From IMG/VR virus record IMGVR_UViG_3300014169_000013, positions 1 through 37,096 of that record: a stretch of DNA of 37,096 nt. One strand, 5' to 3'. The translations under genes were made by a program, and so were the position numbers. A model generated the notes under the pieces. That model was not told the origin of the DNA, did no database searches, and saw only the letters and a program-made list of their open reading frames with translations. The DNA is from a virus (Duplodnaviria > Caudoviricetes). Every line of letters begins with the position of its first letter. Position 1 is the first letter of the stretch. Below, piece after piece: positions 1 to 36,239 of the stretch.

Positions 1-128
1 TACCCATCCCCATACCCATCCCCATACCCAGACCCAGACCCATACCCATACCCAGGCCCATACCCATCCCCATACCCATACCCATACCCATCCCCATACC
101 CAGACCCAGAGCCTCTACCATCGATCAT
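1..128 (-). CDS. Gly/Tyr-rich mini-protein unit 4, 5' part (continues across the contig join into 37096..37060; 54 aa in total)
   Basis: ATG at 128 reads MIDGRGSGSGYGDG...; 128+37=165 nt, in frame across the join and ending GWDEVIS*. Confidence 0.7.
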   Translation of the reverse strand, partial: MIDGRGSGSGYGDGYGYGYGDGYGPGYGYGSGSGYGDGYGDG

Positions 129-325
129 GAAATTACCTCATCCCAGCCATACCCAGACCCAGACCCATACCCATACCCATACCCAGACCCATCCCCATCC
201 CCAGACCCATACCCATACCCATACCCAGACCCATCCCCATACCCAGACCCATCCCCAGACCCATACCCAGACCCATACCCAGACCCATCCCCATCCCCAT
301 ACCCAGAGCCTCTACCATCGATCAT
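125..325 (-). CDS. Gly/Tyr-rich mini-protein unit 3 (66 aa)
   Basis: MIDGRG-(GX)n-GWDEVIS; SD GAGGT inside the previous unit's tail; ATGA stop/start overlap. Confidence 0.75.
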   Translation of the reverse strand: MIDGRGSGYGDGDGSGYGSGYGSGDGSGYGDGSGYGYGYGSGDGDGSGYGYGYGSGSGYGWDEVIS

Positions 326-512
326 GAAATTACCTCATCCCAGCCATACCCAGACCCATACCCATACCCATCCCCATACCCATACCCATCCCCATACCCA
401 GACCCAGACCCATACCAATACCCATACCAATACCCATACCCATCCCCAGCCCCAGACCCATCCCCAGACCCATACCAAGACCCATACCCAGACCCAGAGC
501 CTCTACCATCGA

Positions 513-516
<4 letters not shown>
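322..516 (-). CDS. Gly/Tyr-rich mini-protein unit 2 (64 aa)
   Basis: Same leader and tail, SD and ATGA overlap; contains YWYG variants. Confidence 0.75.
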
Positions 517-751
<235 letters not shown>

Positions 752-755
<4 letters not shown>

Positions 756-1195
756 GACTCCCATCCTAAAATCAATAGGAGCTTATTTCCCCATTCTCTA
801 GAGATACCATCTCGAATTTCATGCGCGGTCATTGGAGACTCGTCTCTTTTTGCTTTAGCCAAAGCGGCCCTACATCCAGACAAACATGCTCCGGTAAGCA
901 ACCGGAATTCATTAAGACTAAGCTTTCTTAGTTTTCCTTCTTTAAGAATGTCTCTTTTGAGAGATTCCATAGACGGGCGCCTTGATTCATCTTTCCAAAT
1001 AGCATCGGCTATGGCTTGTGCTTCGGTATCGCCATGAGCGCACCAGTGCGTTCCGGCCAGAGTGACAAAATACTTTTTATTGCCATTCTCTAGAGTATAC
1101 CTCTCGACGGTGTGTCCATCCGATGTAAGACGGACCTTGATTGGGCCTGAAATATTTTCTTCAAGCCCATCGCGATAAAATTTTCGCGATTTCAT
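752..1195 (-). CDS. Phage hypothetical protein with AHGxT...LTGxCxxG motifs (usually seen with GSGYG repeats)
   Basis: Motifs CAHGDTEAQA and FRLLTGACLSGCR; start moved to MKSRKF with GGGAG SD. Confidence 0.7.
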
Positions 1196-4804: not shown

Positions 4805-5203
4805 TTACAATTTATTGGATTCTTTGGATAATATCCAGTTGAGAAATTGAACCGCCAGTTCCCCCGTGAAATGCCAATCACATCTGCGAGTGATGTGGTG
4901 TCCTTGCCATTCCCGGAATTCTTCAGCGCACTTGGAACAAACGCCAGATTGATGCCTAAAATATTCTGGATGATTGAAGAGCCCCTCAAATGATCGTCCA
5001 TAGTGGTAATCGCCTGGCATATTTGACTTGTAGATTTGCCCACATCCGGGGCATTTTAGGCCGTGTCTGATTATGAGAAGAAATAAATAGTCTTTTGGTT
5101 TTAAGAAAGAAAGAAAATATTGAGAGTTCGCGGTTGGAATATGTTTTGTATGGCGCTCGGCGCCCAAGAGGGCTAGAACCCCCTCGGGCGTGAGCTCTTT
5201 CAT
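4805..5203 (-). CDS. Hypothetical protein with CxxC pairs
   Basis: CPGC and CSKC motifs; start overlaps the upstream stop. Confidence 0.6.
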   Translation of the reverse strand: MKELTPEGVLALLGAERHTKHIPTANSQYFLSFLKPKDYLFLLIIRHGLKCPGCGQIYKSNMPGDYHYGRSFEGLFNHPEYFRHQSGVCSKCAEEFREWQGHHITRRCDWHFTGELAVQFLNWILSKESNKL

Positions 5204-5487
5204 TAGGCGTGGCCTGCTTTTTCGTCTTCTTGAAGCGGACCCGCACCACGTTCGGCTGGCGGAATTGATCCAAGGTTTAAAACGGAAAGGACCGCGTTTC
5301 CTTTTCCGCTAATATGTTTAGCGAATTCAATCTCTACCTTGACCGAATTAACGATAGGCGTGACCATTCTAGCGATCACTCCGGCCTTTTGGGGCGTTGT
5401 GGTTCCCGCCCTCAAAGAGTCAATTTCATCAAAGAGCAAGTTTCGAATTCCTAGCGTTGTTCTTGTTACATTGGGTAACTTTTTCAT
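5203..5487 (-). CDS. Hypothetical phage protein
   Basis: GAGGAG SD before MKKLPNV; LRNLLFDEID-type helix. Confidence 0.65.
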   Translation of the reverse strand: MKKLPNVTRTTLGIRNLLFDEIDSLRAGTTTPQKAGVIARMVTPIVNSVKVEIEFAKHISGKGNAVLSVLNLGSIPPAERGAGPLQEDEKAGHA

Positions 5488-8249: not shown

Positions 8250-8791
8250 AGTTCGTACCAGCTATTGGCATTTATGATAGTTGCTCCAGATGTAACTGGT
8301 TGAGCCGTTACTAACAAAGATTGTCCTGGATCAAGAATAAAAAGCAAATTTGAATCATTTATCGAACTATATCCGGCAGTTATTACGCGCGCCAAAGTTC
8401 CATTGCTAGAAACAGTGAATTGGCCATTTACATAGCAACTAGCAATGCTAGTCGTTGCGCTTGCCGGACGGCAATTGATGGGCGTAGTTTTTGTCCCTTG
8501 AGTTGCGATTGTAGGATTGAGGTAATATCTAAAAAAAGTTGTCCCGTCTCCGCTAGCAATGTCCGACGCAGTCGTTCTTAAATTTTGAAACAATGCTTTT
8601 TGATTAGGAAAGGCGACGCCTGCAGCCAATGCCGGATTAAGAATCAATGCTATAGGAGTTTCGTTTGTGCTATTTATTGTCTCTGGTCCTATTGGAAAAG
8701 AAAATGCATTTCCCAGATAGGTTTGTTTGTTGAAATAGTCCAGTATCGAATGCTCTGGAACTTGATTTTGAGTTGCAGGAGTTAATCCCAT
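8246..8791 (-). CDS. Putative virion or tail accessory protein
   Basis: Beta-rich, ends LDPGQSLLV...SWYEL; GAGG SD. Confidence 0.65.
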   Translation of the reverse strand: MGLTPATQNQVPEHSILDYFNKQTYLGNAFSFPIGPETINSTNETPIALILNPALAAGVAFPNQKALFQNLRTTASDIASGDGTTFFRYYLNPTIATQGTKTTPINCRPASATTSIASCYVNGQFTVSSNGTLARVITAGYSSINDSNLLFILDPGQSLLVTAQPVTSGATIINANSWYEL

Positions 8792-8813
8792 TTATTTAGC
8801 CCTCTAAAAGTTA

Positions 8814-10205
8814 TCACCAGCAGAATACCCAAATACATCCATCGCCACCGGCGCCACCGGCGCCAGAGTTAGTCGCTCCAGCAGAGAAGTTTGAACCGCC
8901 GCCCCCGCCTCCACCACCAGGATATCCGCCCTTACCGCCAGCAGTTCCAGCAGTTGAAGCTGTTACAGTTCCACCACCACCACCACCACCACTACCCGCG
9001 GTAACAGTCGATGACCCGCCAGCAGTTGTTGGAGATCCAGCAGAGCCTGCTGCAGGGCTTGAGCCTGAAGTTCCAGCACTACCACCGCCTCCCGATCCGG
9101 GAGAAACGCTTGGGCCAGAAGCGCCGCCTGCAGTAGGTTGAATGTTCGCAGGGCCCGATGTGGCGCCGCCGCCCATTCCGCCCCCACCACCGCCCCAAAT
9201 TGAAGTACCAGCCGCAAAATTTGCAGGAACTGCAGTTGATCCCCCGCCAGCGCCCCCGCCGTATTCAGCGTATCCGCCCGCGGCAGTGATTGAACTAGCC
9301 GCACCACCTCCGCCGACAGCAGTTACAGTTGATGCTCCAGGAGGTCCGCCAGCTTGAGCCGTTGCAGCGCCAATAAGACCTATACCACCAGTACCGCCGC
9401 CAGTTCCGCCAGCACTTGCAACTCCTGTTACGGCTCCGCCGAACCCTCCACCGCCTCCTCCTGCAAAAACATATGCGCCAGAGGTTTGAGATGTTGCACC
9501 GAAAATCGTATTGCCGCCATTGCCGCCATTGCCGCCAGCAGATGCGTTAACAGCATTGCCCGCCGTTCCTCCTTGGCCAACAACCATGTTGACCGAAGAA
9601 CCAAGATCAGAGGCGTTAAAAATTTTCATTGAATATGCACCGCCACCCCCGCCAGAGCCACCTTTACAAGCTGTTCCAGAAGTGCCTGATCCGCCACCAC
9701 CTCCACCACCACCAGCACCGATACAAACAACTTTTACTACGGAAGGCGTAAATGTAGTTGGCTTTGTCCAAGTTTGGTTTCCGAAAGTTGAAAAGACTTG
9801 AACGTTCGGAGAAGATGTGCCAGAAGACTGAACATAAGCGCCGGCAGCGTTGGTTACATAAAATCCAATGGAATTTCCACCGTAATGAAGTGTATATCCA
9901 GGCTGGAGGGTCGCCGTGTAAAGCGTGAAATTTGTAGCACTTACCAAAACGCTTACGGTAATCGTTTGGTTCACGGTATCTAAATTGTTAATTTCTATTT
10001 GGTCCACTTTATATTGTGCAGAAGCTGAACCGGTAAGCATCGCAACTTGTGTTGTGCCATTTAAACTTCCACTTACGTTTGCTGCCGTATTTAGAACGTT
10101 TGCATTTACGTTAACATAGCTAATAAAGTATGATGGCTCGGTAGTGGTTACACCAGCGCCCATCTTTGCTTCTAAAGCGTTACTGGTTCCATTGAGCAAG
10201 ATCAT
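8814..10205 (-). CDS. Glycine-rich tail fibre/spike protein
   Basis: TWTKP...IGAGGGGGGG...GAGGDGCIWV glycine-rich domain. Confidence 0.8.
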   Translation of the reverse strand: MILLNGTSNALEAKMGAGVTTTEPSYFISYVNVNANVLNTAANVSGSLNGTTQVAMLTGSASAQYKVDQIEINNLDTVNQTITVSVLVSATNFTLYTATLQPGYTLHYGGNSIGFYVTNAAGAYVQSSGTSSPNVQVFSTFGNQTWTKPTTFTPSVVKVVCIGAGGGGGGGGSGTSGTACKGGSGGGGGAYSMKIFNASDLGSSVNMVVGQGGTAGNAVNASAGGNGGNGGNTIFGATSQTSGAYVFAGGGGGGFGGAVTGVASAGGTGGGTGGIGLIGAATAQAGGPPGASTVTAVGGGGAASSITAAGGYAEYGGGAGGGSTAVPANFAAGTSIWGGGGGGMGGGATSGPANIQPTAGGASGPSVSPGSGGGGSAGTSGSSPAAGSAGSPTTAGGSSTVTAGSGGGGGGGTVTASTAGTAGGKGGYPGGGGGGGGSNFSAGATNSGAGGAGGDGCIWVFCW

Positions 10206-12085
10206 GTGTAGACTCCATAGGTGACCATGCCACCAATAAGGGAAGACGAAACACTAGAAATAATATTTAATGGTAATTGAAAAACAGTCCATTCAAGTGA
10301 TGTTCCTGCCGTTCCATATGTCACGCCAGGAGCGATATACGCTGTCCCAGCATTTTCAGAACCTAATTGTATTTTTATAGTTACAGCACTCGTAGTTCCT
10401 GGAGAATATATCCCCTGCAAAGCACATGGGTTTCCGAACGTATTTCCTGCGATTGTGGCTGTAGCAACACCGCTCGCATCTATAATTACAGTCCCATCCG
10501 TTAACTGAGCAATTGCTGATGCAGAAGCCGAAGATGTTAATTGAAATCTTGCTGCGACAAAATAGACAGCACTAGCAGAAGACGGCGTAAATGTAATTCC
10601 TGGCAAATTGCTTGCTGCTGCCGTTATTGTAATGCCTCCAGCAGCCCTTCCAGATGTAGAAAATCCGGCTGTTCCTGAAAATGTCGGATCGGCAAAAACA
10701 CCAGAAGATGTTGTTGTCCATTGCGCGGAAGGTCCAAAATAAGCCGAACCATAGGCAAGCGCAGTTCCTGATCCCCACGTTGGTGCGCTCGCGCCGTTTG
10801 ATTGAAGGACTTGGTTTGTTGTTCCGGCCCCGGTATTCTGAAATTTAGTTCCATCGGTGTAAAGAACCCCGCCAGCAGTAACGGCCAAAGAACCATTGTC
10901 CGTTCCACCGTTAGCGATAGGCAAAACACCCGTTGTTTGAGAAAGCGGAAGAGACAGTGATGATAGGGTTGTCAGTGTAGAGTTAGAAGACGCCGTTATA
11001 TTAGCCGCATTCCCAGAAATGTTTCCAGATACCTGCGAGCCCGGAAGAGATAACGATGATAAGGTTGTCAGCGTCGAATTTGAAGAAGCGGTTATATTTG
11101 CAGCAGTTCCTGTGGTGTTTTGATTGAGCGTTGGAACGTCAGCTACTGCAATCGCGCGAAAAGCTGCTGCCCCAGAACCACCAGTTGAAGGGCCAGCTAA
11201 GAAAGCATTTTGAGATTGGCTCTTGAATGTAGAAATTGTCAGAGTTCCAGCACTAGTGACTGGTGTATTTGTGATGTTGAATGTGTTTGTAGAATCTGTA
11301 AGACCTACGCTCGTAACCCCGGTAGCGGGTGCTGCGGCCCAATGGCCAGTGCCCGCGTTATCGGTAGAGGTCCAAATTTGGCCAGAGGTTCCCTCTGATC
11401 CATCCTTAATTTGGATATGCCCACGCAAGCCCGTTGCGGTTCCAGTTTGAAACAGAATCGTACCAGAATTGCCAGAACCCGCATTCCCTGTTTCAATCCA
11501 AATCGAAGGGGTATTGCCGCCAGAACTTGCAGTAAAAATTCCTAAAGATTGTTGATTTTGTGTATAGAGAGCAAGATTTGCAGTATTGCTACCATCTGGC
11601 ATGTTCTGAGAAATTCCTAGAAATCCCTTGGTAGTTGTTCCATCTGTAGCGCCGAAACTTTCACTGCTAACTGACAACCACGGATTATTATACTGCCCGA
11701 GATTTATGGTTCCGGCACTTCCTGGATTGATGTCAACATTTACCGCAGTAGAAGCAAGATTGCTTAAGGCAGTATTGGCTAGCCCTGAAATTGAGGGAAC
11801 AGAGAAATAACCTAAAGTTCCACCAGAGTTAGTTCCGTAATATTTGCTATTTCCAGGCGTTGCCGAATCATTGACAAGCGTAACGGTCCCAGAATTGTTT
11901 ACGATACTGTCAGAGAAGGTTAACGTCGATTGATCAGTGGACGCAATCGTTAGGGTGTTTCCGCCGGATGGAGTGATCGTAATGCCGGTACCAGCCGCGA
12001 TTGTTAGCGCGCCAGTGAGGGTGTTAAGGCTTGATACGCCGCCTGATCCGCCCCCTCCGCTTGGTGGCCATTCGAACGAGGCTAT
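10202..12085 (-). CDS. Tail fibre protein (627 aa; probable ATA start, extended beyond the track's 11677)
   Basis: Frame stays open 408 nt upstream of 11677 to AGGGGG-CCTT-ATA GCC TCG TTC GAA TGG CCA CCA; GVSSLN/GVTSVG fibre motifs. Confidence 0.75.
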   Translation of the reverse strand: MASFEWPPSGGGGSGGVSSLNTLTGALTIAAGTGITITPSGGNTLTIASTDQSTLTFSDSIVNNSGTVTLVNDSATPGNSKYYGTNSGGTLGYFSVPSISGLANTALSNLASTAVNVDINPGSAGTINLGQYNNPWLSVSSESFGATDGTTTKGFLGISQNMPDGSNTANLALYTQNQQSLGIFTASSGGNTPSIWIETGNAGSGNSGTILFQTGTATGLRGHIQIKDGSEGTSGQIWTSTDNAGTGHWAAAPATGVTSVGLTDSTNTFNITNTPVTSAGTLTISTFKSQSQNAFLAGPSTGGSGAAAFRAIAVADVPTLNQNTTGTAANITASSNSTLTTLSSLSLPGSQVSGNISGNAANITASSNSTLTTLSSLSLPLSQTTGVLPIANGGTDNGSLAVTAGGVLYTDGTKFQNTGAGTTNQVLQSNGASAPTWGSGTALAYGSAYFGPSAQWTTTSSGVFADPTFSGTAGFSTSGRAAGGITITAAASNLPGITFTPSSASAVYFVAARFQLTSSASASAIAQLTDGTVIIDASGVATATIAGNTFGNPCALQGIYSPGTTSAVTIKIQLGSENAGTAYIAPGVTYGTAGTSLEWTVFQLPLNIISSVSSSLIGGMVTYGVYT

Positions 12086-14379: not shown

Positions 14380-16110
14380 TTATCGGTAAGTTATTCCCTT
14401 GTCTTTTAATGCATTTGTTTGGACATGATCCATTATATACTCTTTTAAACCGCGTAATTTGTCATGGGCCAATTCTTTTGAATCGCCATATTCTGGCATG
14501 AATCTTGTCATTGCTTCTTGAACGAATTGATCGCCTCTATTGCCTAGGGCGGCTGAAATTATACCTTGCAGCCTGCCTCTATCCGTTTCGACTTGTCTAT
14601 TGGATTCTGTCGAGGGAATCATGTGGCCTAGGCCTTCTCCTAAAATACCGCCCAAGACTCCTGCCTTTTCCGCCCCTCCAGCTCCGGCCCCAGTTGCTCC
14701 AGCTATTCCGGCCCCAGTTGCAGCCCCCGCCGCACCAATAGCGTGAGGACTAAGGTTTCTAAGCGCACGCCCAATTGGGCCAGCTTTTTGCACGTCTTTT
14801 ACAGTTTGTTCGAATATTTTTTCATCTGTTAAGCGACGGATATTTTTATCAGCAATCGAAGCATTTGCCATTTGTTCTTTAATGGCCGATCTCTGTTCTG
14901 GGCCTACTTCTGGATGATATTGAGGATTACTCAGGATGCTGTTGGCAATCGCTTCCCCCTGGGGGGTAAAAACATTAAATTCATTTGCTTTTTCTGGCGA
15001 TGCCATTTGGCCATTAGGAAGCGGCACTTGTTGGTTAACATTTTGGATTCCAGAACTAGAAGGCGTTCCAGTTCCAGCCGATGTAGATTGGCCATTTCCC
15101 CCAGCATTTCCAGAAAAGTTGGGAAGCGCATTGAAGTTAACCGCAGCATCCCGAATATCTTTAGCCTTTGACACTGCCAAATCAGATTTCAATTTTTGAA
15201 GATTTACAAAGGCTTGAGGCGTTCCAAGTTGCTGAGCAATTTTTGAAGCCTGATCTGTGTAGATGTCGGCCATAGAAGCCCTGGCCATTTTTGAAGCAAT
15301 GACTTGGTTTCCATAGAGCGTGTTGTACGCTCCGAAAATTGTTTTCTGATTTTCATTGTTTTGAATTTGCGCTTGAACATCTCGATCAAGGCTTTTGTTC
15401 AAAGTATCTTGGGCGAAATTTGTGCCATGAAATGGAACAGAAAGGCCGCCAAGGAAAAGGCCAAGTGCTGTTGATACTTTTTTAGGATCGGACATATTGT
15501 CCCACGCGGCATTTGGGTTTATATTTTTAAGATTGGCCGCCAAATTATCAGCGTGGGTTGAAAGAGCATTCACATTGTCTTGGTCTCTTTGTGCTTGCTG
15601 TTGAGCGGCCTGAATTCTTGCTTGCTCAACGGGAACCATGGCTTGAGCCTTTGCAGCATCAATTTTTTCTTGATTGCTCGCAGCTTCTTGACCCATCTGC
15701 ATAGCGCCAGTCGGATTTGTAGAACCATTGGGAAGATTGACCGGCGGATTAGCTGTATTAAGCGCCGGTTGTTGAACAGGAACATTTGTCGCGGCCTGTG
15801 TTGCCGCAGCCGACTGAGGTTGAGGCGCTTGATTGACATTCACTGTAACTGGCGGCTTTTGATCTGCATCAGAATCGTCAGACGAAACTGGCGCATCTGG
15901 CGTGCCCTCATCGTAATGAGCGACTTTGTCCTTAGCTTTTTCTTTTAGCTTGGCTTCTCCGCCTTCATATAATGGCAGACGCTTCATAGCCTCCCGCTGA
16001 ACCGGCGAAAGGGCTTTAAGTGCTACGGTTATTGTATGGCCGCCCTCGTGTTTCATTGTCGCAGTTTTTTTATCTTCTGCGACCTTCTTGAATTTCGAGA
16101 AATCAAGCAT
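14380..16110 (-). CDS. Internal virion/ejection protein
   Basis: Ala/Gln-rich helical protein with GxxxG hydrophobic stretches; gene position. Confidence 0.65.
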   Translation of the reverse strand: MLDFSKFKKVAEDKKTATMKHEGGHTITVALKALSPVQREAMKRLPLYEGGEAKLKEKAKDKVAHYDEGTPDAPVSSDDSDADQKPPVTVNVNQAPQPQSAAATQAATNVPVQQPALNTANPPVNLPNGSTNPTGAMQMGQEAASNQEKIDAAKAQAMVPVEQARIQAAQQQAQRDQDNVNALSTHADNLAANLKNINPNAAWDNMSDPKKVSTALGLFLGGLSVPFHGTNFAQDTLNKSLDRDVQAQIQNNENQKTIFGAYNTLYGNQVIASKMARASMADIYTDQASKIAQQLGTPQAFVNLQKLKSDLAVSKAKDIRDAAVNFNALPNFSGNAGGNGQSTSAGTGTPSSSGIQNVNQQVPLPNGQMASPEKANEFNVFTPQGEAIANSILSNPQYHPEVGPEQRSAIKEQMANASIADKNIRRLTDEKIFEQTVKDVQKAGPIGRALRNLSPHAIGAAGAATGAGIAGATGAGAGGAEKAGVLGGILGEGLGHMIPSTESNRQVETDRGRLQGIISAALGNRGDQFVQEAMTRFMPEYGDSKELAHDKLRGLKEYIMDHVQTNALKDKGITYR

Positions 16111-25378: not shown

Positions 25379-25452
25379 TGGCTTGTAGCATGAAGGTCAT
25401 GCAGACGGCTGTTAACCGTCAGTCGATGGTTCGATTCCATCCGAGCCAGCCA
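25379..25452 (+). tRNA. tRNA-Asn (GTT)
   Basis: Acceptor TGGCTTG/CGAGCCA, D stem GCAT/ATGC, anticodon arm GACGG-CTGTTAA-CCGTC, T arm GATGG-TTCGATT-CCATC, G discriminator plus CCA. Confidence 0.93.
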
Positions 25453-25511: not shown

Positions 25512-26861
25512 TTATTGAGGCAAGCTTACCACGGCATTAGCGCCAGGAGCATTGCAAGACAAATTCAAATAACCACCGACTCGAATCTCGACTGCGTCTT
25601 GCCCTGGAATGGGAAAGCCAAGCATGTCATAAAAGCCCGGGAAAGTTAAGAATTGAGGAATTTTCCCCAAACTTCTCAGTTTCCAAGTCTTCATCGTCAA
25701 GATGTACGCCGTTTGAGCAGGGCAGTTACGATCTTGAACGATAGAGATTTCACCGTTGGCGGTCGGTAATACCAGCGCCTTAAACGAGATTTCAACCTCC
25801 TCGTTCACTTTGGCTCTGATCATTTGGTATTGGCCTTGGCCCGTCAAATTCTTAACCAAGGTCTGATAAGAGACCGGGTTAATGAAAATAACGTCAGGGT
25901 CACCAGCTTCAGACGATTGTGCGGCCAATTGGTTAGTCGCATCAATCAAACAATCTTGAATCGATTCAGCGGTCCCAGCGAAACGAAGCCCAGCAAGTTT
26001 AGTCGGGCTTACGCTGCGGTTTTGAGTGAAGAAAGAGTCACTCGAGGCCGGAGCAGTCGAAGGAATCCAAGCGCCCAATCCTGCGATGCAGAGCATGTTG
26101 GCGCTATTCAATCCGTTGGTGACAAAGCTAGTGTCGCCAGCCCTGCTCAAATAAGGAAAGCTTGTGGACCAGCCGCTAGGCGTTCCAGCCGCACCTTGTT
26201 GAGTCGCGCTTACCGTCACAGTACCGGCACCAGTATCAACGGCGATGACATAACCGATGGCTGCACCAGTTGATTGGGTTGCAGTGCTTCCGCTTACCGA
26301 GAAGCTTGTCAAAGCCATGTTCACCGAGAACTGATAAACTTGACCGAGGTTGTCGAGGGTAATGACTCCGCTTGTGATCGAGCCAGACCCACCATTAGCG
26401 CCGTAAGAGCCGCGAGTACCAGAACCGTCGCTAAACATCTGGAATGCAATGTCATTGGCAGCCCCCATGTAAAGAGACTTAACGTTCATCTTCGCTGCAG
26501 GCATGAAGGCTCCGATATTTTGAGCCGATGCACGCAAGAATTGGTTCTGGATAGAGCCAACGCGGTAAACGTTAACTGTGGTCAAAAGGAAAGACGCAGT
26601 GGCCGGCGCAGTTTGATAGGTCTGCGCGGTTCCGAGGTTCGCAGAACCCCCACCACCAACATCATAGAGCACGGGAATCGGAAAGTTCAATCCGCCCAAG
26701 CCCATTTCCGTTTCATCTTTGTCGCACATCGACAAGAAACGGTTTTTGTTAAACACAAGGTCTTTCATGACCCATGCGTCATCAGAATAAAGCTGCTTTA
26801 AGACCTGCAAGTTATCCTGACTATTTGAATATGCAATCGCTGGATTCGCGGGAGTACCCAT
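25512..26861 (-). CDS. Major capsid protein
   Basis: 449 aa, after the scaffold gene and before a terminator; LKQLY..PIP..DRNCP..APGAN pattern. Confidence 0.88.
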   Translation of the reverse strand: MGTPANPAIAYSNSQDNLQVLKQLYSDDAWVMKDLVFNKNRFLSMCDKDETEMGLGGLNFPIPVLYDVGGGGSANLGTAQTYQTAPATASFLLTTVNVYRVGSIQNQFLRASAQNIGAFMPAAKMNVKSLYMGAANDIAFQMFSDGSGTRGSYGANGGSGSITSGVITLDNLGQVYQFSVNMALTSFSVSGSTATQSTGAAIGYVIAVDTGAGTVTVSATQQGAAGTPSGWSTSFPYLSRAGDTSFVTNGLNSANMLCIAGLGAWIPSTAPASSDSFFTQNRSVSPTKLAGLRFAGTAESIQDCLIDATNQLAAQSSEAGDPDVIFINPVSYQTLVKNLTGQGQYQMIRAKVNEEVEISFKALVLPTANGEISIVQDRNCPAQTAYILTMKTWKLRSLGKIPQFLTFPGFYDMLGFPIPGQDAVEIRVGGYLNLSCNAPGANAVVSLPQ

Positions 26862-26864
26862 ATA

Positions 26865-27794
26865 TTATCCTTGTTTAGCGGCCTGCACCCTTCGGATCGC
26901 TTCAGCGATCTGTTCAGATTCTGACAAAAGGTGAAAAGGCTTAGGCTTCACGACTGTTGAAGTCGGAGCCATGTTTTGTGTTAGAGTTTTTGATTCAGTC
27001 TTCGGAGCGCCTAACACTTTCTTCTCCGTTACTGGTTTAGCTTCGTCATCAAGAATCGTTTTCCATTTCTGGGCACGTTCTGTCAGAGCGTCAGATATTT
27101 CTTTTGCGGCTTGTTCGACCGTGAGCTCGGTCCCGTCTTCTTCGAATGAATCGTTTATGTGCTGAAGGACCGTGTCGTAAGCTTCCATCTTTTTAACGGC
27201 CGCAAACTCAGGCTTTTCAGCAACTACTCGTTGAATCTCAGCCTTCCAAAGTGCTTGGTTGGCCTCGTATTCCTTAACTTCCTTTTCTTCTAAGGTCTTT
27301 CTAAGCTTGACCTGTTCTTCTCGAAGCTGGCGAAGTTCCTCTTTTGTAGGGTCTTTTGCCGCCTCTTTATTGAGCTCATGTTTCACAATTTCTTCATAGG
27401 CCACGCCTAATTCATCAAGCCCCGAATAATCTTTTGCTTTTATTTTTTCTTTAAGCTTATGAAATGAGTCAGCATCCGCCATTTTCTCAGCGAAGGTCCG
27501 CTCTTTTTCTTGAATGGCTTTCTCTCTTGCGCGCTGGGCCGCTTCTTTTCTAGCGATGGCCGACACTTTGGGAGATAACTGGATTTCGCCAGGCGGTACT
27601 TCGGCAACGGGTGCCGTCGCGGGAGTTGTAGTTTCCGCTACTGGGTTCTCTGGTATTACGCGTTGAGAGCCCGTAATGGTAGTTGTTCCTTTTGGATCAA
27701 AGCCTTGAAACTCTTTAACGGGAAGATCGAATTGATTAGGCTGATTGGTTTGAGTCCCTACGGGCATAGGCATAGCTTCTGTTGTAAATGGCAT
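26865..27794 (-). CDS. Capsid scaffolding protein
   Basis: Charged coiled-coil protein between portal and capsid; AAGGAG SD. Confidence 0.75.
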   Translation of the reverse strand: MPFTTEAMPMPVGTQTNQPNQFDLPVKEFQGFDPKGTTTITGSQRVIPENPVAETTTPATAPVAEVPPGEIQLSPKVSAIARKEAAQRAREKAIQEKERTFAEKMADADSFHKLKEKIKAKDYSGLDELGVAYEEIVKHELNKEAAKDPTKEELRQLREEQVKLRKTLEEKEVKEYEANQALWKAEIQRVVAEKPEFAAVKKMEAYDTVLQHINDSFEEDGTELTVEQAAKEISDALTERAQKWKTILDDEAKPVTEKKVLGAPKTESKTLTQNMAPTSTVVKPKPFHLLSESEQIAEAIRRVQAAKQG

Positions 27795-27814
27795 AATTTT
27801 TTCTCCTTAGTTAA

Positions 27815-29740
27815 TTAAACTGCAACGTTACTAGTTGGGCTTACCGAAGGTTGAGGCGGCGCGACCGGCAATGGTTGTTGGGGTTGTTGAGCAGGGCCCT
27901 GAACCGGCGGCGGCGCCGCCTCAGCCTTCAAATTTTGAATAGCTGTAAAGTATTCTTGGATTAATTGAAGCTTTTCGTCTTCTATGTCAGTGACTACGTA
28001 TTTATTGTAATATTGAACCGTCTTTTGAGTCGCAAGGTCTGTTGGATCAAGTATGAATTGATCGGGCGGATTGTAACCCTTTCGGCCATCCTCAATAATG
28101 CTATCCAAGTCATGTAAAATCCGCTCTTCTAACGCGACGGCTAATTGATCGTCTTGTTCAAGGTCTGGGAGTCTTGAAAGTCTTCGAAATTCTTGATTTG
28201 TTATTTCACCAGCGGCCAACATCTCAGACAATTTCGATTGTCGCCCCACTGGGTCTTTGGGTAAAGACGACTCTTCATAACAGCGAATGACGTTTGTATT
28301 TTCTAAAAGGTCAATCTTGGGGAAATCTACTTTACGAGTCCCATCCCGGCCTGGATAGACAGTCATGTACTTTCCATCTCTTTTTGCAATTAACGCTGCG
28401 CGATCAAGCGTTTTGGACGCTAGGTCAGTATAGAAATCTTGATAGCGCTTCTGCATAGCAGAGGATCTTGTTGATTGGATGTTCATATACTCGCGCTGCG
28501 CTTCGCCGCTATTTAGGCCTGCTGGCTTTGTCCCATTGGCACTTAACGAACTGATACCTGAAATTTGATAGGCGTTTTCGATGAGCCATTTGATGTATTC
28601 ATAAATCTCAGCATTGTTAGACGTTGCGTTAACAAACTGAGGAGCCTCGGCCATCGTTTTAACTTTGATGATTGAAGCAATATTGTTATTGAATGCCGTC
28701 TCAAGGACTTTTGAGAGTTCACTGATAATGATCTTTGGAACGCCGGTTAACTCAATGGACTGAGATGCGATAATTAGCATCTTGTAGATTTCCATTTGCG
28801 TGGGAAACAAGATTTCAGCTAGGCCCTGGCTAAACCAGCCAACCATATTGTCATTGTAAGAAAGCTTTGAAAAAGGAAAGTAATCAAACTCCCATGATTC
28901 GTCTAACAAAATGCCATCAGCGCACGCTATTACATGCCGACCGTCCTTGGCCGCGTCTCCCGACGGAAGATGCCATCCTTCGCTCACAATGATATTATCT
29001 GCAATCGTGTCTGTTGACTGTGGCGAACTATCCACAGTTCCCGCTTGAGACATCATTATTTTGTCTGATGCCTTTGGCATTTCTTCAGCCAATACCCCAC
29101 GATCACAAAGCTTTGTTTGAATTAATCCTCTAGGATTTCCATAGTATGCATCGTTGAAATCGACTAAGAGTTCAGTTTCAAGTGTTCGCTCATGAAAGAC
29201 TTTGCCGTCTTTTTCTCCCACCTTAACAAGGCCATTGCCTAAGATTCCTGAATCTCTGAATGCTTGAACGCCTTTTCCATAAGTCTTACACCGGTAAAAT
29301 TCTCCCCCGATGAAGTTATTGACTTGCTCGGCAATCTGTCTTTCTTTATATTTTGAGGCATCGGGAATCCAAACAGGCGAGGGGTTATCTTGAGTAATCT
29401 GAGAGGTTATGGTGTCAACACATGAATAAACCACATTCGCTGTCGGTCGGCCCATTGGCATTTGTTGGGAATTGTCGAGAGTTGATGTACTTGCTAGGTA
29501 GTTATAAAGGGGTTTTCCCGAAAACAAACGAGAGTACAACGACGCTTGTCGTATGCGGGCCGAATGGAATTTCTTCAGAAATGCCGTTGTGCTTAAAAGT
29601 TGGACTAGCAATTGCTCATCAGACTGTGAATGCCACCACGCGTAATAGTTAGAATCCTTTTCAATTGTCTTCTTATCCCGCGGGTCAATGACTTTATCTT
29701 TAACCTTTATTACTTCAATTGGCTCTATCGCGAAGGCCAT
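27815..29740 (-). CDS. Portal protein
   Basis: 641 aa; NVVYSCVDT, KPAGLNSGEAQRE, Pro/Gln tail; gene position. Confidence 0.85.
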   Translation of the reverse strand: MAFAIEPIEVIKVKDKVIDPRDKKTIEKDSNYYAWWHSQSDEQLLVQLLSTTAFLKKFHSARIRQASLYSRLFSGKPLYNYLASTSTLDNSQQMPMGRPTANVVYSCVDTITSQITQDNPSPVWIPDASKYKERQIAEQVNNFIGGEFYRCKTYGKGVQAFRDSGILGNGLVKVGEKDGKVFHERTLETELLVDFNDAYYGNPRGLIQTKLCDRGVLAEEMPKASDKIMMSQAGTVDSSPQSTDTIADNIIVSEGWHLPSGDAAKDGRHVIACADGILLDESWEFDYFPFSKLSYNDNMVGWFSQGLAEILFPTQMEIYKMLIIASQSIELTGVPKIIISELSKVLETAFNNNIASIIKVKTMAEAPQFVNATSNNAEIYEYIKWLIENAYQISGISSLSANGTKPAGLNSGEAQREYMNIQSTRSSAMQKRYQDFYTDLASKTLDRAALIAKRDGKYMTVYPGRDGTRKVDFPKIDLLENTNVIRCYEESSLPKDPVGRQSKLSEMLAAGEITNQEFRRLSRLPDLEQDDQLAVALEERILHDLDSIIEDGRKGYNPPDQFILDPTDLATQKTVQYYNKYVVTDIEDEKLQLIQEYFTAIQNLKAEAAPPPVQGPAQQPQQPLPVAPPQPSVSPTSNVAV

Positions 29741-30018
29741 TAGACTTCAGCCTCGGGAAACATCTTATCAGCCAATTGCTGGGCCGTAAGATTCATGGTT
29801 GAAACCATTTCTTTAATCTTAGAATTAGCCTCGTCTATTGCTTTTTGTTGAATAGGATCAATAGCACTATTCGTTGGCGTCGGAGGCAATGGCTCTAGTT
29901 TTTTTACTTGGAATTCGTCAGACTCTTCAAAATCAATCTCATGCTCAATACTCTTGAAACGCTTCACTCCAGCGGCCCTCAAGGCTTGAACTAATGAGAC
30001 AGTTTCCTGTAAGTTCAT
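29740..30018 (-). CDS. Hypothetical protein
   Basis: Overlapping stop/start with both neighbours. Confidence 0.7.
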   Translation of the reverse strand: MNLQETVSLVQALRAAGVKRFKSIEHEIDFEESDEFQVKKLEPLPPTPTNSAIDPIQQKAIDEANSKIKEMVSTMNLTAQQLADKMFPEAEV

Positions 30019-30296
30019 TACAGACTTTCAAGGTATTTGGCCAAGCGGGCTGAAATCTTCTTACGCTTAGCTTCGTCCTGGCTAGATTCATTCTCGCCCA
30101 TCTCGGCATCCGTTGCCGGCTCATGGTCTGGACTATCAAGAACATCGTTTACTTCATCGTCTTGTTTCTGGTCCCAAGCACGATTCGGATCGACTGCATC
30201 TTGACCGGCATAGTCCATATCTTGGCGAAGATCGGCTTGACCCGATTGTTTCTTTTTCTTTCTGATGGACGCTGAGAGTTCTTTTCCGTCAAGCAT
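30018..30296 (-). CDS. Hypothetical acidic protein
   Basis: Packed in the operon. Confidence 0.7.
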   Translation of the reverse strand: MLDGKELSASIRKKKKQSGQADLRQDMDYAGQDAVDPNRAWDQKQDDEVNDVLDSPDHEPATDAEMGENESSQDEAKRKKISARLAKYLESL

Positions 30297-30297
30297 G

Positions 30298-30528
30298 TCA
30301 GTCTTCCTTTTTGCTCAAGTGATGTAGGATTGTGGCTTCAACTGCGCCCATCAATCTTTTGTGATCTTTGGAATGAATAGAATCCATAAGTTCAGCACCC
30401 AGGGCATCAGAGATTTCGTCATCAGGCTTGGCGCCTTCGGGCTCATGGCTTTCGGCCTCAACCTTCACAGGCTCTTTTTGTTCGGCAGCGTCTTCTTTGT
30501 CAGGCCGTTTTAGATGTGCTAGAGGCAT
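30298..30528 (-). CDS. Small protein with SKDHK motif (paralogue of 30500-30736)
   Basis: AGGAGG SD before MPLAHL. Confidence 0.7.
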   Translation of the reverse strand: MPLAHLKRPDKEDAAEQKEPVKVEAESHEPEGAKPDDEISDALGAELMDSIHSKDHKRLMGAVEATILHHLSKKED

Positions 30529-30736
30529 GATCGCCCTCCTTGTCAATTACACAGTCAATAATGGCCGAGAAGGCTTTCATCATGGATTTATGATCTTTAG
30601 ATTCAATGGCTTGAGATAGTTCATCAAGGGCAGATTCGACGAGCTCGTCCATTTCGGTGAATCCATACTTTGATACACCACTTAACTTTCTAAGCTTTGG
30701 GAGTTTTTCAGTCTGAAGAAAAGGGAGCTTCGTCAT
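30500..30736 (-). CDS. Small protein with SKDHK motif
   Basis: ATG 2 nt after late motif copy 3, no SD. Confidence 0.7.
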   Translation of the reverse strand: MTKLPFLQTEKLPKLRKLSGVSKYGFTEMDELVESALDELSQAIESKDHKSMMKAFSAIIDCVIDKEGDHASSTSKTA

Positions 30737-30738
30737 AC

Positions 30739-30761
30739 ACTATTGACGTAGTGTTTCAGAA
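30739..30761 (-). promoter_or_regulatory. Late-gene motif copy 3: TTCTGAAACA-N6-CAATAGT
   Basis: Same motif and spacing; heads the portal-capsid block. Confidence 0.6.
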
Positions 30762-30778
30762 ATTATATTGATTGAACC

Positions 30779-31063
30779 ATGAATCGTCGTGGATTTTTAA
30801 AGGGACTGTTGGGAACCGGAGCTGCTTTAGCTATCCCCAAGGCTTTGTTGCCCGAACTAAGTCTACCAACATTTGAATCTGTGGCAGTTCAGCCTATCAT
30901 CGAATATTCCCATTCTTTAACTCAACTAGCTATTTTAAAAGAACTTTATTCAGACAATATTGAGGAACTTGTCTATCGGAGAAATCCATTTTTAGAAATG
31001 ATCCAGTCAGAAAACCAATGGACCGGAACTTCTATGCCCATTCCTATATCTTATTCTTCATAA
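30779..31063 (+). CDS. Tat-signal protein carrying a major-capsid N-terminal-like segment
   Basis: MNRRGFLK twin-arginine motif; last ~55 aa align with capsid residues ~7-66. Confidence 0.8.
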   Translation: MNRRGFLKGLLGTGAALAIPKALLPELSLPTFESVAVQPIIEYSHSLTQLAILKELYSDNIEELVYRRNPFLEMIQSENQWTGTSMPIPISYSS

Positions 31064-32535
31064 CGATTCCAAGGCGGCACGCCGAACCTATCGTTTTGCC
31101 AACTAAACGCATCGCCCTGCTTTTGGGCCTGTTCTCGCTGAATCTTTTCGATAATAGCCTGCTTGTGCAAGTCTTCTTGCTCTTTGATATATTCTGGAGT
31201 TCCAAGTTTAGGAACAATCTTCGCTGGCCTTGATAAGAAGTGCCAGCCGTTGAACCAGCCATAGAGAAACGCGTCGCATAAATGATTTGGAAGTGTAGGA
31301 TGTTCCTTCCTCGGGAAGGCTATTCGATCTCCGTCAGTCTGCCAAACAAGGCGCATCATTTCGTCGACGAGCTCAGAGCAGGACTCATGGATTTTGATTT
31401 TGCCAGTCAAAAGATCGCCGTTACATTGCTCGATATGCTCGGCCTTCCCAAGTTTATCAGCATAAACAAAGGGGATGTCGCCACGCATGTTCATTGTCTC
31501 AACGCCCTGCTTATTAGCGCCGTCAATGATTACATTTTGCACAGGAAAGTAAGGATCATTGAGATATTTCTGGATTGTCTTTTTGACTGATAATTCAGGG
31601 TCATCATGATCAAAATACATCTTGGGCTTCTTAAAGCATTTGATTATGTAGAGATTTGGATCATTCTCGTGATAGCCGCTTAGCACAAATGCGTTATCGT
31701 CTTCCCAGCCAGTATCAACGCCGAGGTTAAACGTCCAGCCCTTAGAGCCTGGATATGGCAAATCCTTATAAAGATTTCTCTCAGCCGAGTACTTGTAAAC
31801 CAGCTTGTCTTCATCGACCACCCATTGATTGAGATATGCTTGCCTGAATCGTGCGGTTCCCATTAGCTGGGGTTGATTTACTGCTATGAAGTTGAGCTCT
31901 TCTTGCCATTGCTTACAGACATATGGATTGTCATGAGCCGACCATTGATGAAGGCTCCAGCCCTTTTCTTTTCCGATAGTGATGTCATAGAAAAGTCCGA
32001 AAGTAATGTCTGATGCCATGCCAGAAAGAACAACTGTTCCTTGCATATCTACAACTGAAGGTCTAAGAACTACGTAAACAAGGTCCCTTAGATCAATTGT
32101 ATAAAGAGCAGCTTCGTCGATTATGATTAGTTTGTATTTACGTCCAAAGAGTTTCTTGCGCTCTTGTTCATTCACGTCAACGCCAGCGACGTAAATTACA
32201 GAGCCGCCAGGTCCAGTCATCGTTAGTTCCGATTTGTTCGGAACATATCCTAGGTTACAGCGTTCATTGATATGTAGGAGCACGTCTTTCCAGATGATCC
32301 CCTTAGCTGCCATGCGAGTGAGGCCAAGATAGAGAATATTGCATTGAGGAGTTTCTTCCGCCTCTTTGAACATGTAAATGCCATCGGCGTAAGATTTGGC
32401 TCCGCGGCGAGTAGTGAATGATGCCTTGAGCCTATGTGGGTCTTCGATGAGTTGTATTTGTTTATCGAATGCTATGGATTTCCAATCAAATCTTGAATGT
32501 CTGTATTGATGAAGTCTTTGAAGAGGCGTTGTCAT
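31051..32535 (-). CDS. terL: Terminase large subunit
   Basis: TRRGAKS Walker A variant, LIIIDEA Walker B, GVDTGWEDD nuclease motif, HLCDAFLY. Confidence 0.93.
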   Translation of the reverse strand: MTTPLQRLHQYRHSRFDWKSIAFDKQIQLIEDPHRLKASFTTRRGAKSYADGIYMFKEAEETPQCNILYLGLTRMAAKGIIWKDVLLHINERCNLGYVPNKSELTMTGPGGSVIYVAGVDVNEQERKKLFGRKYKLIIIDEAALYTIDLRDLVYVVLRPSVVDMQGTVVLSGMASDITFGLFYDITIGKEKGWSLHQWSAHDNPYVCKQWQEELNFIAVNQPQLMGTARFRQAYLNQWVVDEDKLVYKYSAERNLYKDLPYPGSKGWTFNLGVDTGWEDDNAFVLSGYHENDPNLYIIKCFKKPKMYFDHDDPELSVKKTIQKYLNDPYFPVQNVIIDGANKQGVETMNMRGDIPFVYADKLGKAEHIEQCNGDLLTGKIKIHESCSELVDEMMRLVWQTDGDRIAFPRKEHPTLPNHLCDAFLYGWFNGWHFLSRPAKIVPKLGTPEYIKEQEDLHKQAIIEKIQREQAQKQGDAFSWQNDRFGVPPWNRYEE

Positions 32536-34394: not shown

Positions 34395-34690
34395 TGGGTC
34401 ACCGGCGGAGTCGCGTCACCTTGATCAATTTTATCAGGAGTTGATGCTGGTTTAGCTGCCCCATTCGCTTTGGCCTTTTGTGCGGCTAAGGCTTTAGCAG
34501 TTTTTTCTTGCTCCGCTTTGATTTCTACTTTAGCTGCCTGATCTGCTTCATTGTCGAGGACTCTGAGTTGGCGTCTAATATCATCCATTTGCTGAGGGAT
34601 TTTTTCAAGCTGCCATTGAAGATGGCCCAGGGTTGCTACTTTTTGATTGTAATCGCGATTGATCTCTTGAACGGTCCGAGTTTTAGGCAT
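34391..34690 (-). CDS. Hypothetical coiled-coil protein
   Basis: AAGGAG SD. Confidence 0.7.
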   Translation of the reverse strand: MPKTRTVQEINRDYNQKVATLGHLQWQLEKIPQQMDDIRRQLRVLDNEADQAAKVEIKAEQEKTAKALAAQKAKANGAAKPASTPDKIDQGDATPPVTQ

Positions 34691-34750
34691 TATTTTTCTC
34701 CTTGTTCTTCAGTTTCTTTTAAGACATATTATTTAAGAAATGAGGTGTCA

Positions 34751-35170
34751 ATGCACAAAAACATTAGCACTGAAAATACTTCCTGCAGTTCCTGTCAGGC
34801 ATTTTTGCCGCAATGCTCCTATGTGATCCAAGACTTTTATTTATGGCTATCAAAAAACTTTCCTGATGCCCACATTTGCCAGGGCTTTAGGTCCGAAACA
34901 GACCAGCATGCCGATTTCTTGGCTGGAAAGTCAAAGCTGGACTATCCGAGAAGTGCCCATAATAATTTGAAGGACGGCCAGCCCTTTAGCGAAGCAATTG
35001 ATGTATTTCAGCTTTTGCCAAATGGAGAAGCGGCATTCCCGCCCACATATTATCAAGACATCTACAATTCTTTGTTGAATGCAAGTCAACCAATAGCCTG
35101 GGGCGGCAAATGGCTAACGCTTGTTGATCGTGACCATTTTCAAAATGCATCTTGGAATCCGCCGGCATGA
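34751..35170 (+). CDS. Endolysin, M15-family Zn peptidase
   Basis: GFRS..Q, SAHN..AID, WGGKW..DRDHFQ; GAGGTG SD before ATG 34751. Confidence 0.88.
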   Translation: MHKNISTENTSCSSCQAFLPQCSYVIQDFYLWLSKNFPDAHICQGFRSETDQHADFLAGKSKLDYPRSAHNNLKDGQPFSEAIDVFQLLPNGEAAFPPTYYQDIYNSLLNASQPIAWGGKWLTLVDRDHFQNASWNPPA

Positions 35171-35391
35171 CGTCATGGCAATATTATCTGGTAATATCCT
35201 GTATTATTGGTGCCATTTCATGGATTGTATGGACCGAGGCGCGCGTTAGAAGCTTGCAATCTGCTTTGAATATGGCTAAATGGACAAATGAGAAAACGGA
35301 TATCAATACCGCTGTTAGTCAGCTTACTCCTATCCAGCGCGTTAATGAGCTCGAAAGCGATCTTGGCAGCGGACCTAAGCCCTCAGCTTAG
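35167..35391 (+). CDS. Membrane-anchored protein (inner spanin-like)
   Basis: N-terminal TM then helix; ATGA overlap with the endolysin. Confidence 0.55.
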   Translation: MTSWQYYLVISCIIGAISWIVWTEARVRSLQSALNMAKWTNEKTDINTAVSQLTPIQRVNELESDLGSGPKPSA

Positions 35392-35653
35392 ACCAGCATT
35401 CATAACCCTTGACGTCAGTCCTTCACCTTCTCCTGCGCCAGATTCAGACGATGATTCAGATACAGAAGTCGCGCTAAATCCAGAGCAGCAAGAAAAAGTC
35501 ATTGAATGTTTCAGAGATGAAAAGGCTTGTGAGACTCATTTGGCTACCTGTAACGCCAATTATGCACAAGAGCCCAAATCAATTATGGATCGCGTTATGA
35601 TATTTGTCGGTGGGATTCTTGTTGGAATGGTAATCCATAATCAAATTCATTGA
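35288..35653 (+). CDS. Signal peptide plus C-terminal TM protein (spanin-like partner)
   Basis: Overlaps the previous gene in another frame, as Rz/Rz1 do. Confidence 0.55.
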   Translation: MRKRISIPLLVSLLLSSALMSSKAILAADLSPQLRPAFITLDVSPSPSPAPDSDDDSDTEVALNPEQQEKVIECFRDEKACETHLATCNANYAQEPKSIMDRVMIFVGGILVGMVIHNQIH

Positions 35654-35716
35654 GTCCTATGATGGCCCGGAAGTCACAAGCCACAAAACCTCTTCAGTGA
35701 TAACGAAATGGACAAA

Positions 35717-35950
35717 TCATTTCAATGGCCCGTGAATTTGGATCAACTTCATCGTGAGAACGCCCACAACATTAAACATCTCATCGGAATGGTATCCATG
35801 CTTCACGAGATGATTTATGGTCTCCTTCAGTTCTTTCACATCCTGTTCATTTCTCTTTTTGATTTGAGCAGGAGTCATGCAAGGCCCACAAGAATTTGCC
35901 AGTTGATTTTTAGCCGATATCGGCATCGGCATCGGTGTTGCTCTACTCAT
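35717..35950 (-). CDS. Hypothetical protein
   Basis: GGAGG SD; end of the early operon. Confidence 0.6.
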   Translation of the reverse strand: MSRATPMPMPISAKNQLANSCGPCMTPAQIKKRNEQDVKELKETINHLVKHGYHSDEMFNVVGVLTMKLIQIHGPLK

Positions 35951-36239
35951 TTATTTTGTCCTCCCCGGAAGCATATAAATCTTTGAACATTTTAAAGGTT
36001 CGGCCTTCTCCCGAAGTACAGAGCAAAGAAAGAAAATAGGTCGCCGCCTTATTTGATATTTTATGGATTTGATCTGGAGTGGCTGGCAGTCCGCCGTCAT
36101 TTGCAGCCCTTTGCCATTCATCCTGAAATGCGCAGGCGATATTGGCCTGCCAACCTCGGCGATACCCCTCATCCTCAAGAGCTTGACGAAGGACATCCAA
36201 GGCTTCGGGAACTGTAATTGCTTTATAAGGTGTAGTCAT
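35943..36239 (-). CDS. Hypothetical phage protein
   Basis: Y..GWQANIACAFQDE motif; start at MTTPYK with GGAG SD. Confidence 0.65.
   Translation of the reverse strand: MTTPYKAITVPEALDVLRQALEDEGYRRGWQANIACAFQDEWQRAANDGGLPATPDQIHKISNKAATYFLSLLCTSGEGRTFKMFKDLYASGEDKINE

Follow-up and report, generated by a model that had tools for sequence, protein, structure and literature searches.

Why should a tailed phage keep, beside the gene for its large terminase subunit, a short open reading frame (ORF) that faces the other way from its neighbours and appears to join an export leader to a piece of the phage's own capsid protein? The ORF in question encodes 94 amino acids (aa) and lies at 30779..31063 on the + strand (coordinates including the stop codon) of the IMG/VR virus record IMGVR_UViG_3300014169_000013 (Caudoviricetes), which represents an uncultured phage from a wetland. 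The whole of this linear record, 37,096 nt with an estimated completeness of 88%, is the window analysed here. The - strand carries nearly every gene of the window, and this is the sole + strand ORF amid the - strand head genes, as the initial annotation, made from the letters alone, had it when it described a lone antisense gene between terL and the head genes. The ORF occupies a 314-nt gap after terL, whose last 13 nt it overlaps convergently, and no - strand ORF of at least 40 aa lies within 30737..31050. Its product can be divided into three parts, all encoded on the + strand: a leader of the twin-arginine translocation (Tat) type (residues 1-19, 30779..30835), consisting of MNRRGFLKG, an uncharged, moderately hydrophobic stretch and the motif ALA at residues 16-18; a Pro-rich linker (residues 20-38, 30836..30892); and a tail (residues 39-92, 30893..31054) that resembles the N-arm of the major capsid protein (MCP) and contains the core motifs LKELY and NPFL. 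As judged from sequence, the ORF is intact and belongs to a conserved group of mini-proteins, each combining a Tat-type leader with a copy of the MCP N-arm.

The tail had initially been described as a diverged copy of the MCP N-terminus on the strength of about 23 identities in some 55 residues counted by eye, and the alignments uphold this description. ORF residues 39-92 match MCP residues 7-66 at 24 of 60 positions (40%, BLASTP E-value 1e-10), and a six-frame search of the whole record with the ORF recovers the MCP gene at an E-value of 3.5e-8, the resembled part (26664..26843, - strand) being that which encodes the N-arm and the strand following it. The match is specific, in that this is the sole small ORF among the 295 window ORFs of at least 35 aa that matches an ORF of at least 280 aa at an E-value of 1e-3 or lower. 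ORF residues 51-82 also match positions 7-38 of the 311 positions of the NF033394 profile in the same register as the MCP, at an E-value of 0.088 and with 12 bits against a cut-off of 80. As it has no full-length match that includes the P- and A-domains, the ORF reads as an MCP fragment, not a capsid protein. The MCP itself (449 aa, 25512..26861, - strand) is identified by Pfam SU10_MCP (E-value 8.9e-8) and by NF033394, capsid_maj_Podo (residues 19-446, 75 bits, slightly short of the required 80), and among PDB sequences neither the MCP nor an MCP profile had more than chance matches. The N-termini of related MCPs are nearly invariant, with 25 distinct 85-residue strings in the 38 loci fetched via the MCP. 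An AlphaFold2 (AF2) model of the MCP, built with 14 relatives, has low confidence (predicted local distance difference test, pLDDT, 29.7); its helices at residues 14-24 and 27-38 and a long helix at 116-143 would be consistent, at that low confidence, with an N-arm that precedes the spine helix.

The leader lies above both of the curated cut-offs applied to it, scoring 25.1 bits against 22.7 for Pfam TAT_signal (PF10518, residues 1-19) and 19.7 against 16.7 for TIGR01409, which bears out the twin-arginine signal recognised in the first inspection. Among its sequence features, the 14-residue stretch after the motif has a mean Kyte-Doolittle value of 0.71, and IPK comes directly after the ALA of residues 16-18. 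All 16 family members (15 proteins and the ORF of locus L087, see below) have RR at position 3-5 and then a 14-residue, moderately hydrophobic window with 0-2 charged residues, and seven of the 16 exceed the TIGR01409 cut-off. One other window ORF (40 aa, 5190..5312) fits a loose RR-motif pattern by chance. Small ORFs starting with MNRRGFLK but carrying unrelated tails are frequent in other viral contigs (L042:9924-10148, L042:4640-4909 on the - strand, L045:5016-5264, L043:3810-4211, L046:10001-10396, L187:10001-10315, L192:1138-1749, L192:2077-2310 and L194:1413-1772), and some of them adjoin terL or portal-like genes (L043 and perhaps L194).

To place the ORF among known proteins, we used an exhaustive phmmer (HMMER) search of 1.84 billion cluster representatives with an E-value cut-off of 1e-3. 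Including the query, it returned 15 proteins (P0001-P0015), each 80-104 aa long, each aligned from residue 1 and none of MCP length; word-based protein searches had P0002 (97 aa) as the sole homologue. Neither the search for longer homologues nor the scans with A5 yielded any, and what metagenome and genome scans returned was confined to the window, MCPs and bare leaders. In alignment A3 of the 15 proteins, R3, R4, F6 and Y57 occur in every sequence, L53, K54 and E55 show a conservation of 90% or more, and the length of the linker varies. The build of the family is accordingly a protein of 80-104 aa with RR-x-F at residues 3-7, a variable linker and the core Y-x-N-S ... LKELY ... D-L-x-Y-x-x-N-P-F-L; the window ORF has every invariant and nearly invariant residue, and five of the 15 members stop just past the NPFL core, without the final P-x-P strand. 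Over its full length the window ORF is 33-49% identical to the other representatives, and since this divergence is found over intact frames of one build, we infer that neutral drift is untenable. All ten representatives that were looked up are singleton clusters, on 1-4 contigs each, with P0002 on 9 contigs, so that the family is rare in the data. GenBank phages gave no match to the ORF, to a 4-kb region, to P0005 or to the MCP, PHROG and PADLOC gave none to the ORF, and Rfam placed no family in the ORF region.

Searches with the A3 profile added one further leader-bearing member only, in L087, from loci L001-L099 and the window, and only MCP N-termini and leader-less ORFs from the 86 loci L100-L185 (taken from the A6 and A7 scans); a tblastn search of 40 loci with the ORF found only itself and the MCP N-termini of 12 loci. 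The family thus comprises at least 15 clusters plus the L087 ORF. The initial annotation had held that an insignificant alignment, or an ORF that was unique and drifting neutrally, would speak against such a gene; the alignment proved significant, and the ORF shares its build, with RR-x-F invariant, with this family. The further genes of the kind that it had suggested looking for include 14 proteins, the L087 ORF and an analogue in a P22-like contig, L041. Its naming of the ORF as a capsid mimic is supported in part, and the roles that it put forward, a decoy of host sensors, the poisoning, tethering or export of competitors' capsid subunits or an anchoring of assembly at the membrane, are conjectures.

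The predicted structure is that of a helical protein without a globular fold. With A3 as input, AF2 places helices at residues 3-17 (the leader), 39-57, 61-67 and 70-74 at a mean pLDDT of 59.6, and the linker is predicted to be disordered (pLDDT below 50 at residues 24-37); the Atlas model of the ORF has a pLDDT of 0.46. A non-globular prediction of low confidence is what would be expected of an arm that needs a partner. The top match by features in the Atlas (score 0.89) is a viral cluster with 66 members and a length of 98 aa, a likeness by features only, given with no sequence.

The analogue in L041 is encoded by another capsid lineage. This 59-kb contig is P22-like (P22_CoatProtein 4.6e-27, P22_portal 1.9e-140, Terminase_3), and between terL and portal (L041:8989-9216) it has a 75-aa ORF beginning MNRRGFLKGLL. 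Residues 25-57 of this ORF match residues 365-400 of the contig's own coat protein (50%, E-value 4e-9), and residues 59-71 match coat residues 15-27 (62% over 13 aa, E-value 1e-3). In P22 gp5, according to passages of PMC9965877, residues 2-30 form the N-arm helix and residues 358-416 lie in the P-domain. Another P22-like contig, L043, has a 133-aa leader ORF directly after terL with a weak match to the same C-terminal segment of the coat protein (E-value 0.025). Copies of the arm are also found without a leader. The 80-aa ORF at 27559..27801 of G004 (the same as L061:1477-1719, - strand), which is embedded in a block of early-type genes, matches P0001 with 33% identity over 55 aa (E-value 2e-8) and P0002 with an E-value of 1e-6, and further leader-less N-arm-like ORFs are present at L172:507-917 and L124:294-542. 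Possibly the antisense 108-aa ORF after terL in L015 (L015:4264-4590, - strand) is another: it shares with the G004 ORF a basic 17-residue N-terminal motif, R-G-Y-x-R-A-L-K-x-N-x-x-W-A-L (71%, E-value 6e-6), and matches MCP residues 373-393 weakly (E-value about 1e-3 over 22 aa).

The ORF behaves as a cassette. In a DNA contig of run X3, from another study, position 30765 is joined to 31058, with 7 other letters replacing 292 nt, and a neighbouring contig of the same relative has 12 differences in the 366 positions of 30398..30763, making the flank about 97% identical. The cassette (30766..31057) consists of a 13-nt leader and almost all of the ORF, and from the sequence of the junction, terL in the cassette-less relative would end three codons differently. 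Presence or absence between otherwise similar relatives, by which a moron is recognised, is therefore seen here. A chance ORF or an assembly artefact was rejected as an explanation, as a single contig from an independent assembly of the source run contains the cassette with both junctions, and the family is conserved. Among the terL-portal intervals listed for 19 relatives' loci the ORF is absent. In L087, the member (85 aa, 10001..10258) shares the strand of terL (8544..10001), whose stop its start overlaps, and is followed by the conserved small genes and then by portal, scaffold and an MCP split by an intron. The terL junction is thus common to the window and L087, and the orientation is inverted in the window, so the antisense placement described at the outset holds for the window but is not a trait of the family.

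The stretch after terL is variable in general, with HNH-like ORFs at L008:3087-3467 and L032:4322-4789, small ORFs at L011:1659-1856, in L013 and L015 and at L036:3910-4587 (- strand), and nothing extra in L003, L005, L009 and L040; this junction is a hot spot for accessory inserts. One of the small ORFs is a 225-aa antisense ORF that begins with a hydrophobic segment. Mosaicism between loci L003-L040 and the window is strong: in many of them the MCP is 92-96% identical, their terL about 54-57% and their portal 65-82%.

As for what such a protein might do, the copied part offers the first indication. In P22, according to passages of PMC9965877, R293 and K296 of the scaffolding protein gp8 bind D14, E15 and E18 of the gp5 N-arm helix; passages of PMC5644958 describe how the 'helix-and-hook' of the 80alpha scaffold binds the N-arm helix (alpha1) of the capsid protein (CP), and how CpmB of the Staphylococcus aureus pathogenicity island SaPI1 competes for this docking site. 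Because the N-arm helix docks the C-terminal helix of the scaffold in both phages, the mimic would be expected to bind the scaffold C-terminus, and because the copied part corresponds to that arm, the scaffold, rather than host sensors, is the first candidate partner. The putative scaffolding protein of the window's group has a conserved basic helix at its C-terminus (the last 30 residues have a net charge of +2 to +5 in 24 of 24 sequences), and the core segment of the window ORF has a net charge of -3. The reading that we put foremost, tentatively and at somewhat short of an even chance, is that the product is a membrane- or periplasm-directed decoy of the MCP N-arm that interferes with procapsid assembly or relocates it. 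The tail would retain the binding surface of the N-arm, through which the mimic would engage the C-terminus of the scaffold or a different partner of the N-arm such as the MCP or the portal; the leader would bring it, perhaps with the partner that it holds, to the host Tat translocon or across the membrane, and procapsid assembly would be disturbed or relocated as a result. Since the cassette is dispensable, a role in competition among related phages is favoured, and the most plausible targets would be related competing phages, with the ORF acting as an accessory ('moron') gene.

A number of points weigh against such a decoy. The assignment of MCP residues 7-66 to the N-arm is a weak point, as it rests on sequence position, the NF033394 register and the low-confidence MCP model. 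The core segment has a net charge of 0 or +1 in six of the 15 members, which makes the charge argument weak, and the putative scaffold has no family match in the Pfam, PHROG or NCBIfam-type libraries scanned. Since the N-arm is nearly invariant, a decoy would also strike the phage's own assembly, and the existence of leader-less N-arm-like ORFs suggests that the copied arm does not depend on a Tat leader. Not every leader is recognised either: four of the 16 members score just below the TIGR01409 cut-off and five have no match to it at an E-value of 0.1 or lower, the P0002 leader falls under the Pfam TAT_signal cut-off, and the L041 leader matches neither Pfam TAT_signal (E-value 0.01 or lower) nor TIGR01409 (0.1 or lower). 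Finally, expression of the ORF in the window phage is doubtful. The ORF is antisense to the late operon, it is preceded by no Shine-Dalgarno motif, the promoter scan lists no site upstream of it, and the two small contigs of RNA run X2 cover only 29993..30297 and not the ORF. The TTGACG noted upstream in the initial annotation is present (30743..30748, + strand) and, by eye, forms a candidate weak promoter with TATATT (30764..30769) after a spacer of 15 nt (30743..30769 in all), which the scan did not list as a promoter; as this candidate straddles the cassette junction, the mRNA would be almost leaderless. No terminator meeting the scan criteria follows the ORF. Many other genes of the phage likewise lack a Shine-Dalgarno motif.

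What the tail conserves bears on whether the capsid is still its concern. It might be that the N-arm was merely the raw material for an exported peptide with a target in the envelope or periplasm, such as ejection proteins or the receptor used by superinfecting phages, so that the gene would act in the manner of superinfection exclusion and have no partner in capsid assembly. An invariant RR in a Tat-type leader, the presence or absence of the cassette, a location in a hot spot that in other loci takes up HNH-like ORFs (L008, L032) or small ORFs (L011, L015, L036), and a tail just 40% identical to an otherwise nearly invariant N-arm would all suit such a peptide. A new target would not, however, predict that the family conserves the conserved positions of the real N-arm, and this is what was found: per-column conservation in the 16 tails and in 94 distinct MCP N-termini is correlated over 56 columns (Spearman 0.62, p 4e-7), and the majority residues of the two sets are almost alike. 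Nor would it predict tails apparently renewed from different MCP lineages. The tails are roughly as near to MCPs as to one another, with P0009 58% identical to an MCP N-terminus and 40% to its nearest family member, and in a quick FastTree analysis of this short alignment the family falls into a clade of seven that includes the ORFs of the window and of L087 (support 0.889), a pair and single sequences. The lack of a single clade could result either from tails renewed repeatedly out of MCP genes or from a poorly resolved tree. Together with the L041 ORF, which copies the coat protein of its own contig, these observations lead us to regard the peptide with a new target as unlikely.

The same parts could instead serve a positive role in the phage's own morphogenesis, in which an N-arm-like adaptor, and through it the scaffold, the portal or the MCP, would be tethered by the leader to the inner membrane or the Tat receptor for nucleation, or the leader would export a bound partner as a 'hitchhiker'. 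The L087 and L041 genes lie in the head module, on the sense strand and directly after terL, and the overlap of the L087 start with the terL stop suggests coupled translation. Hitchhiking of signal-less partners through Tat is established (PMC4273604). Such a role sits poorly with a gene that is dispensable, being absent from the close relative and from the related loci examined, and that is inverted relative to the late operon in the window. We also know of no phage that requires Tat for head assembly, and altogether consider this role improbable.

The antisense position, the convergent overlap with terL, the lack of a Shine-Dalgarno motif and of a promoter or terminator by the scan criteria, the missing RNA cover in run X2 and the sense orientation of the L087 homologue could also mean that the family is real and the window member is a recently inverted relic that is not expressed. 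A silent relic need not have kept an intact frame of 94 codons with every one of R3, R4, F6, L53, K54, E55 and Y57, at the level of full-length identity to the other representatives given above; the TTGACG-15 nt-TATATT pair lies just upstream, and a missing Shine-Dalgarno motif is common to many genes of the phage. A relic therefore seems decidedly improbable to us. As some defences (CapRel, Lit) sense capsid protein, the mimic might instead titrate a capsid-sensing host immune sensor or remove it via Tat, but this is highly improbable, for it has the likeness to the MCP alone in its favour, leaves the export leader unexplained, finds no PADLOC match for P0001, P0002, the G004 ORF or the L015 ORF, and supposes that binding blocks the sensor, whereas the capsid sensors known to us are cytoplasmic and are activated by it.

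A wider form of the N-arm decoy takes in the P22-like contigs. The SU10-like and P22-like lineages may each have fitted a Tat leader onto pieces of their own capsid that make contacts on its inner surface, beside the terminase gene, and would then share an undescribed system that captures, relocates or expels scaffold or capsid subunits via the host's exporter of folded proteins, whether to attack relatives in the same cell or to provide a platform for assembly at the membrane. We consider this somewhat unlikely.

The gene can be compared with several known systems. Like the Tat signal peptides of PF10518 and TIGR01409, the window ORF has RR-x-F-L-K, followed by what may be the h-region, uncharged and moderately hydrophobic, and by a candidate cleavage site resembling A-x-A. 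Tat cargo is usually folded and often consists of cofactor-bearing enzymes; here, by contrast, it is an arm of about 55 residues copied from a shell protein and predicted to be non-globular, and some members score below the cut-offs. An N-arm of the HK97 fold that serves as a dock for the scaffold is described, in the passages cited above, for P22 (gp5 residues 2-30 and gp8) and 80alpha (CP alpha1 and the scaffolding protein), and the helical arm of the MCP that is copied here, with its conserved positions kept, and a putative scaffold with a basic C-terminal helix are similar to it. The window mimic differs in being a free-standing protein of 94 aa with an export leader and no shell subunit, and docking in the window's group is supposed by analogy. 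Copies of head components that compete at the capsid-scaffold interface are also described for the SaPI proteins CpmB (a scaffold mimic) and Ccm (a homologue of the capsid protein) (PMC5644958, PMC8569155). These are satellite-encoded, cytoplasmic proteins without a signal peptide that change the size of the capsid, whereas the window gene lies in the phage's own full head module, copies an arm fragment only and has a Tat-type leader.

With morons and superinfection-exclusion genes, of which HK97 gp15 and T5 Llp are examples, the ORF shares its small size, its place as an accessory gene between late genes, its presence or absence among relatives and a product that is predicted to be directed to the envelope. 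To our knowledge those genes copy no virion protein, and their products depend on Sec signals, lipoprotein signals or membrane helices; the window gene, in addition, has no promoter listed by the scan. The small subunit of [FeFe]-hydrogenase (Pfam Fe_hyd_SSU) is likewise a short protein with a Tat leader, and ranks sixth by features in the Atlas (score 0.85). It is a piece split from a larger protein and carries its partner across by hitchhiking. There is no relation in sequence, the Atlas likeness probably reflects the leader only, and the link through hitchhiking is an analogy. The initial annotation had known of no described example of such a gene, and the literature searched, in the form of listings and of passages of one preprint on host fimbriae, likewise contained no description of an export leader fused to capsid fragments. 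The gene is real and conserved, of a kind for which that literature has no description, and the candidate mechanism is plausible.

The remaining genes of the head module all lie on the - strand. The large terminase gene terL (31051..32535) is identified by the PHROG family terminase large subunit; on the opposite side of the ORF, four small genes (29740..30736, from the ORF list) include its neighbour, a 78-aa gene at 30500..30736. They are followed by the portal gene (27815..29740, SU10_portal) and by that of the putative scaffolding protein (309 aa, 26865..27794), an acidic, coiled-coil-like protein assigned by its location between portal and MCP, its composition and the 24-sequence alignment A8. 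Rfam recognises a tRNA gene at 25379..25449 (+ strand, 56.9 bits), immediately downstream of the MCP gene and opposite to it in sense. The lysis cassette is probably the short + strand block at 34508..35986, where one ORF is endolysin-like (PHROG 465) and another, of 121 aa, has a Sec-type signal. At 125..764 (- strand), three tandem small ORFs encode Gly/Tyr/Ser/Asp-rich repeats (MIDGRGSG...) in a stretch with a GC content of 0.53 and a GC skew of -0.64, which differs from the remaining record. TatA was not found in the window, and no relative of the MCP was found in three candidate host genomes or in one candidate phylum, of which 401 genomes were searched.

The MCP genes of many relatives are interrupted some 36-60 codons from the start by non-coding inserts, each roughly 200 nt long or longer. 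Such inserts are found at L022:496-698, L030:10109-10315 and L087:14706-15470 (with an HNH-like ORF at 14989..15441), and also in L049, L093, L097, L161, L175, L181 and L104/L105, at no fewer than two distinct insertion points, all in the part that encodes the N-arm. They look like group I introns, one of them with an HNH-like ORF; Rfam gave no match at gathering score for the L022 and L030 inserts.

If the N-arm decoy is correct, it would be a new accessory function of phages, in which mimicry of the capsid-assembly interface is coupled to the host Tat pathway. It would predict a location of the product that depends on RR, binding to the C-terminal helix of the scaffold and altered procapsid assembly in this phage as well as in related ones, and peptides of this type might be of use as specific inhibitors or as membrane anchors for capsid-based nanocontainers. 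It is already evident that short terminal pieces of capsid genes are recycled as new genes, here next to the recombination hot spot that follows terL, in phages whose capsid genes are often split by intron-like inserts.

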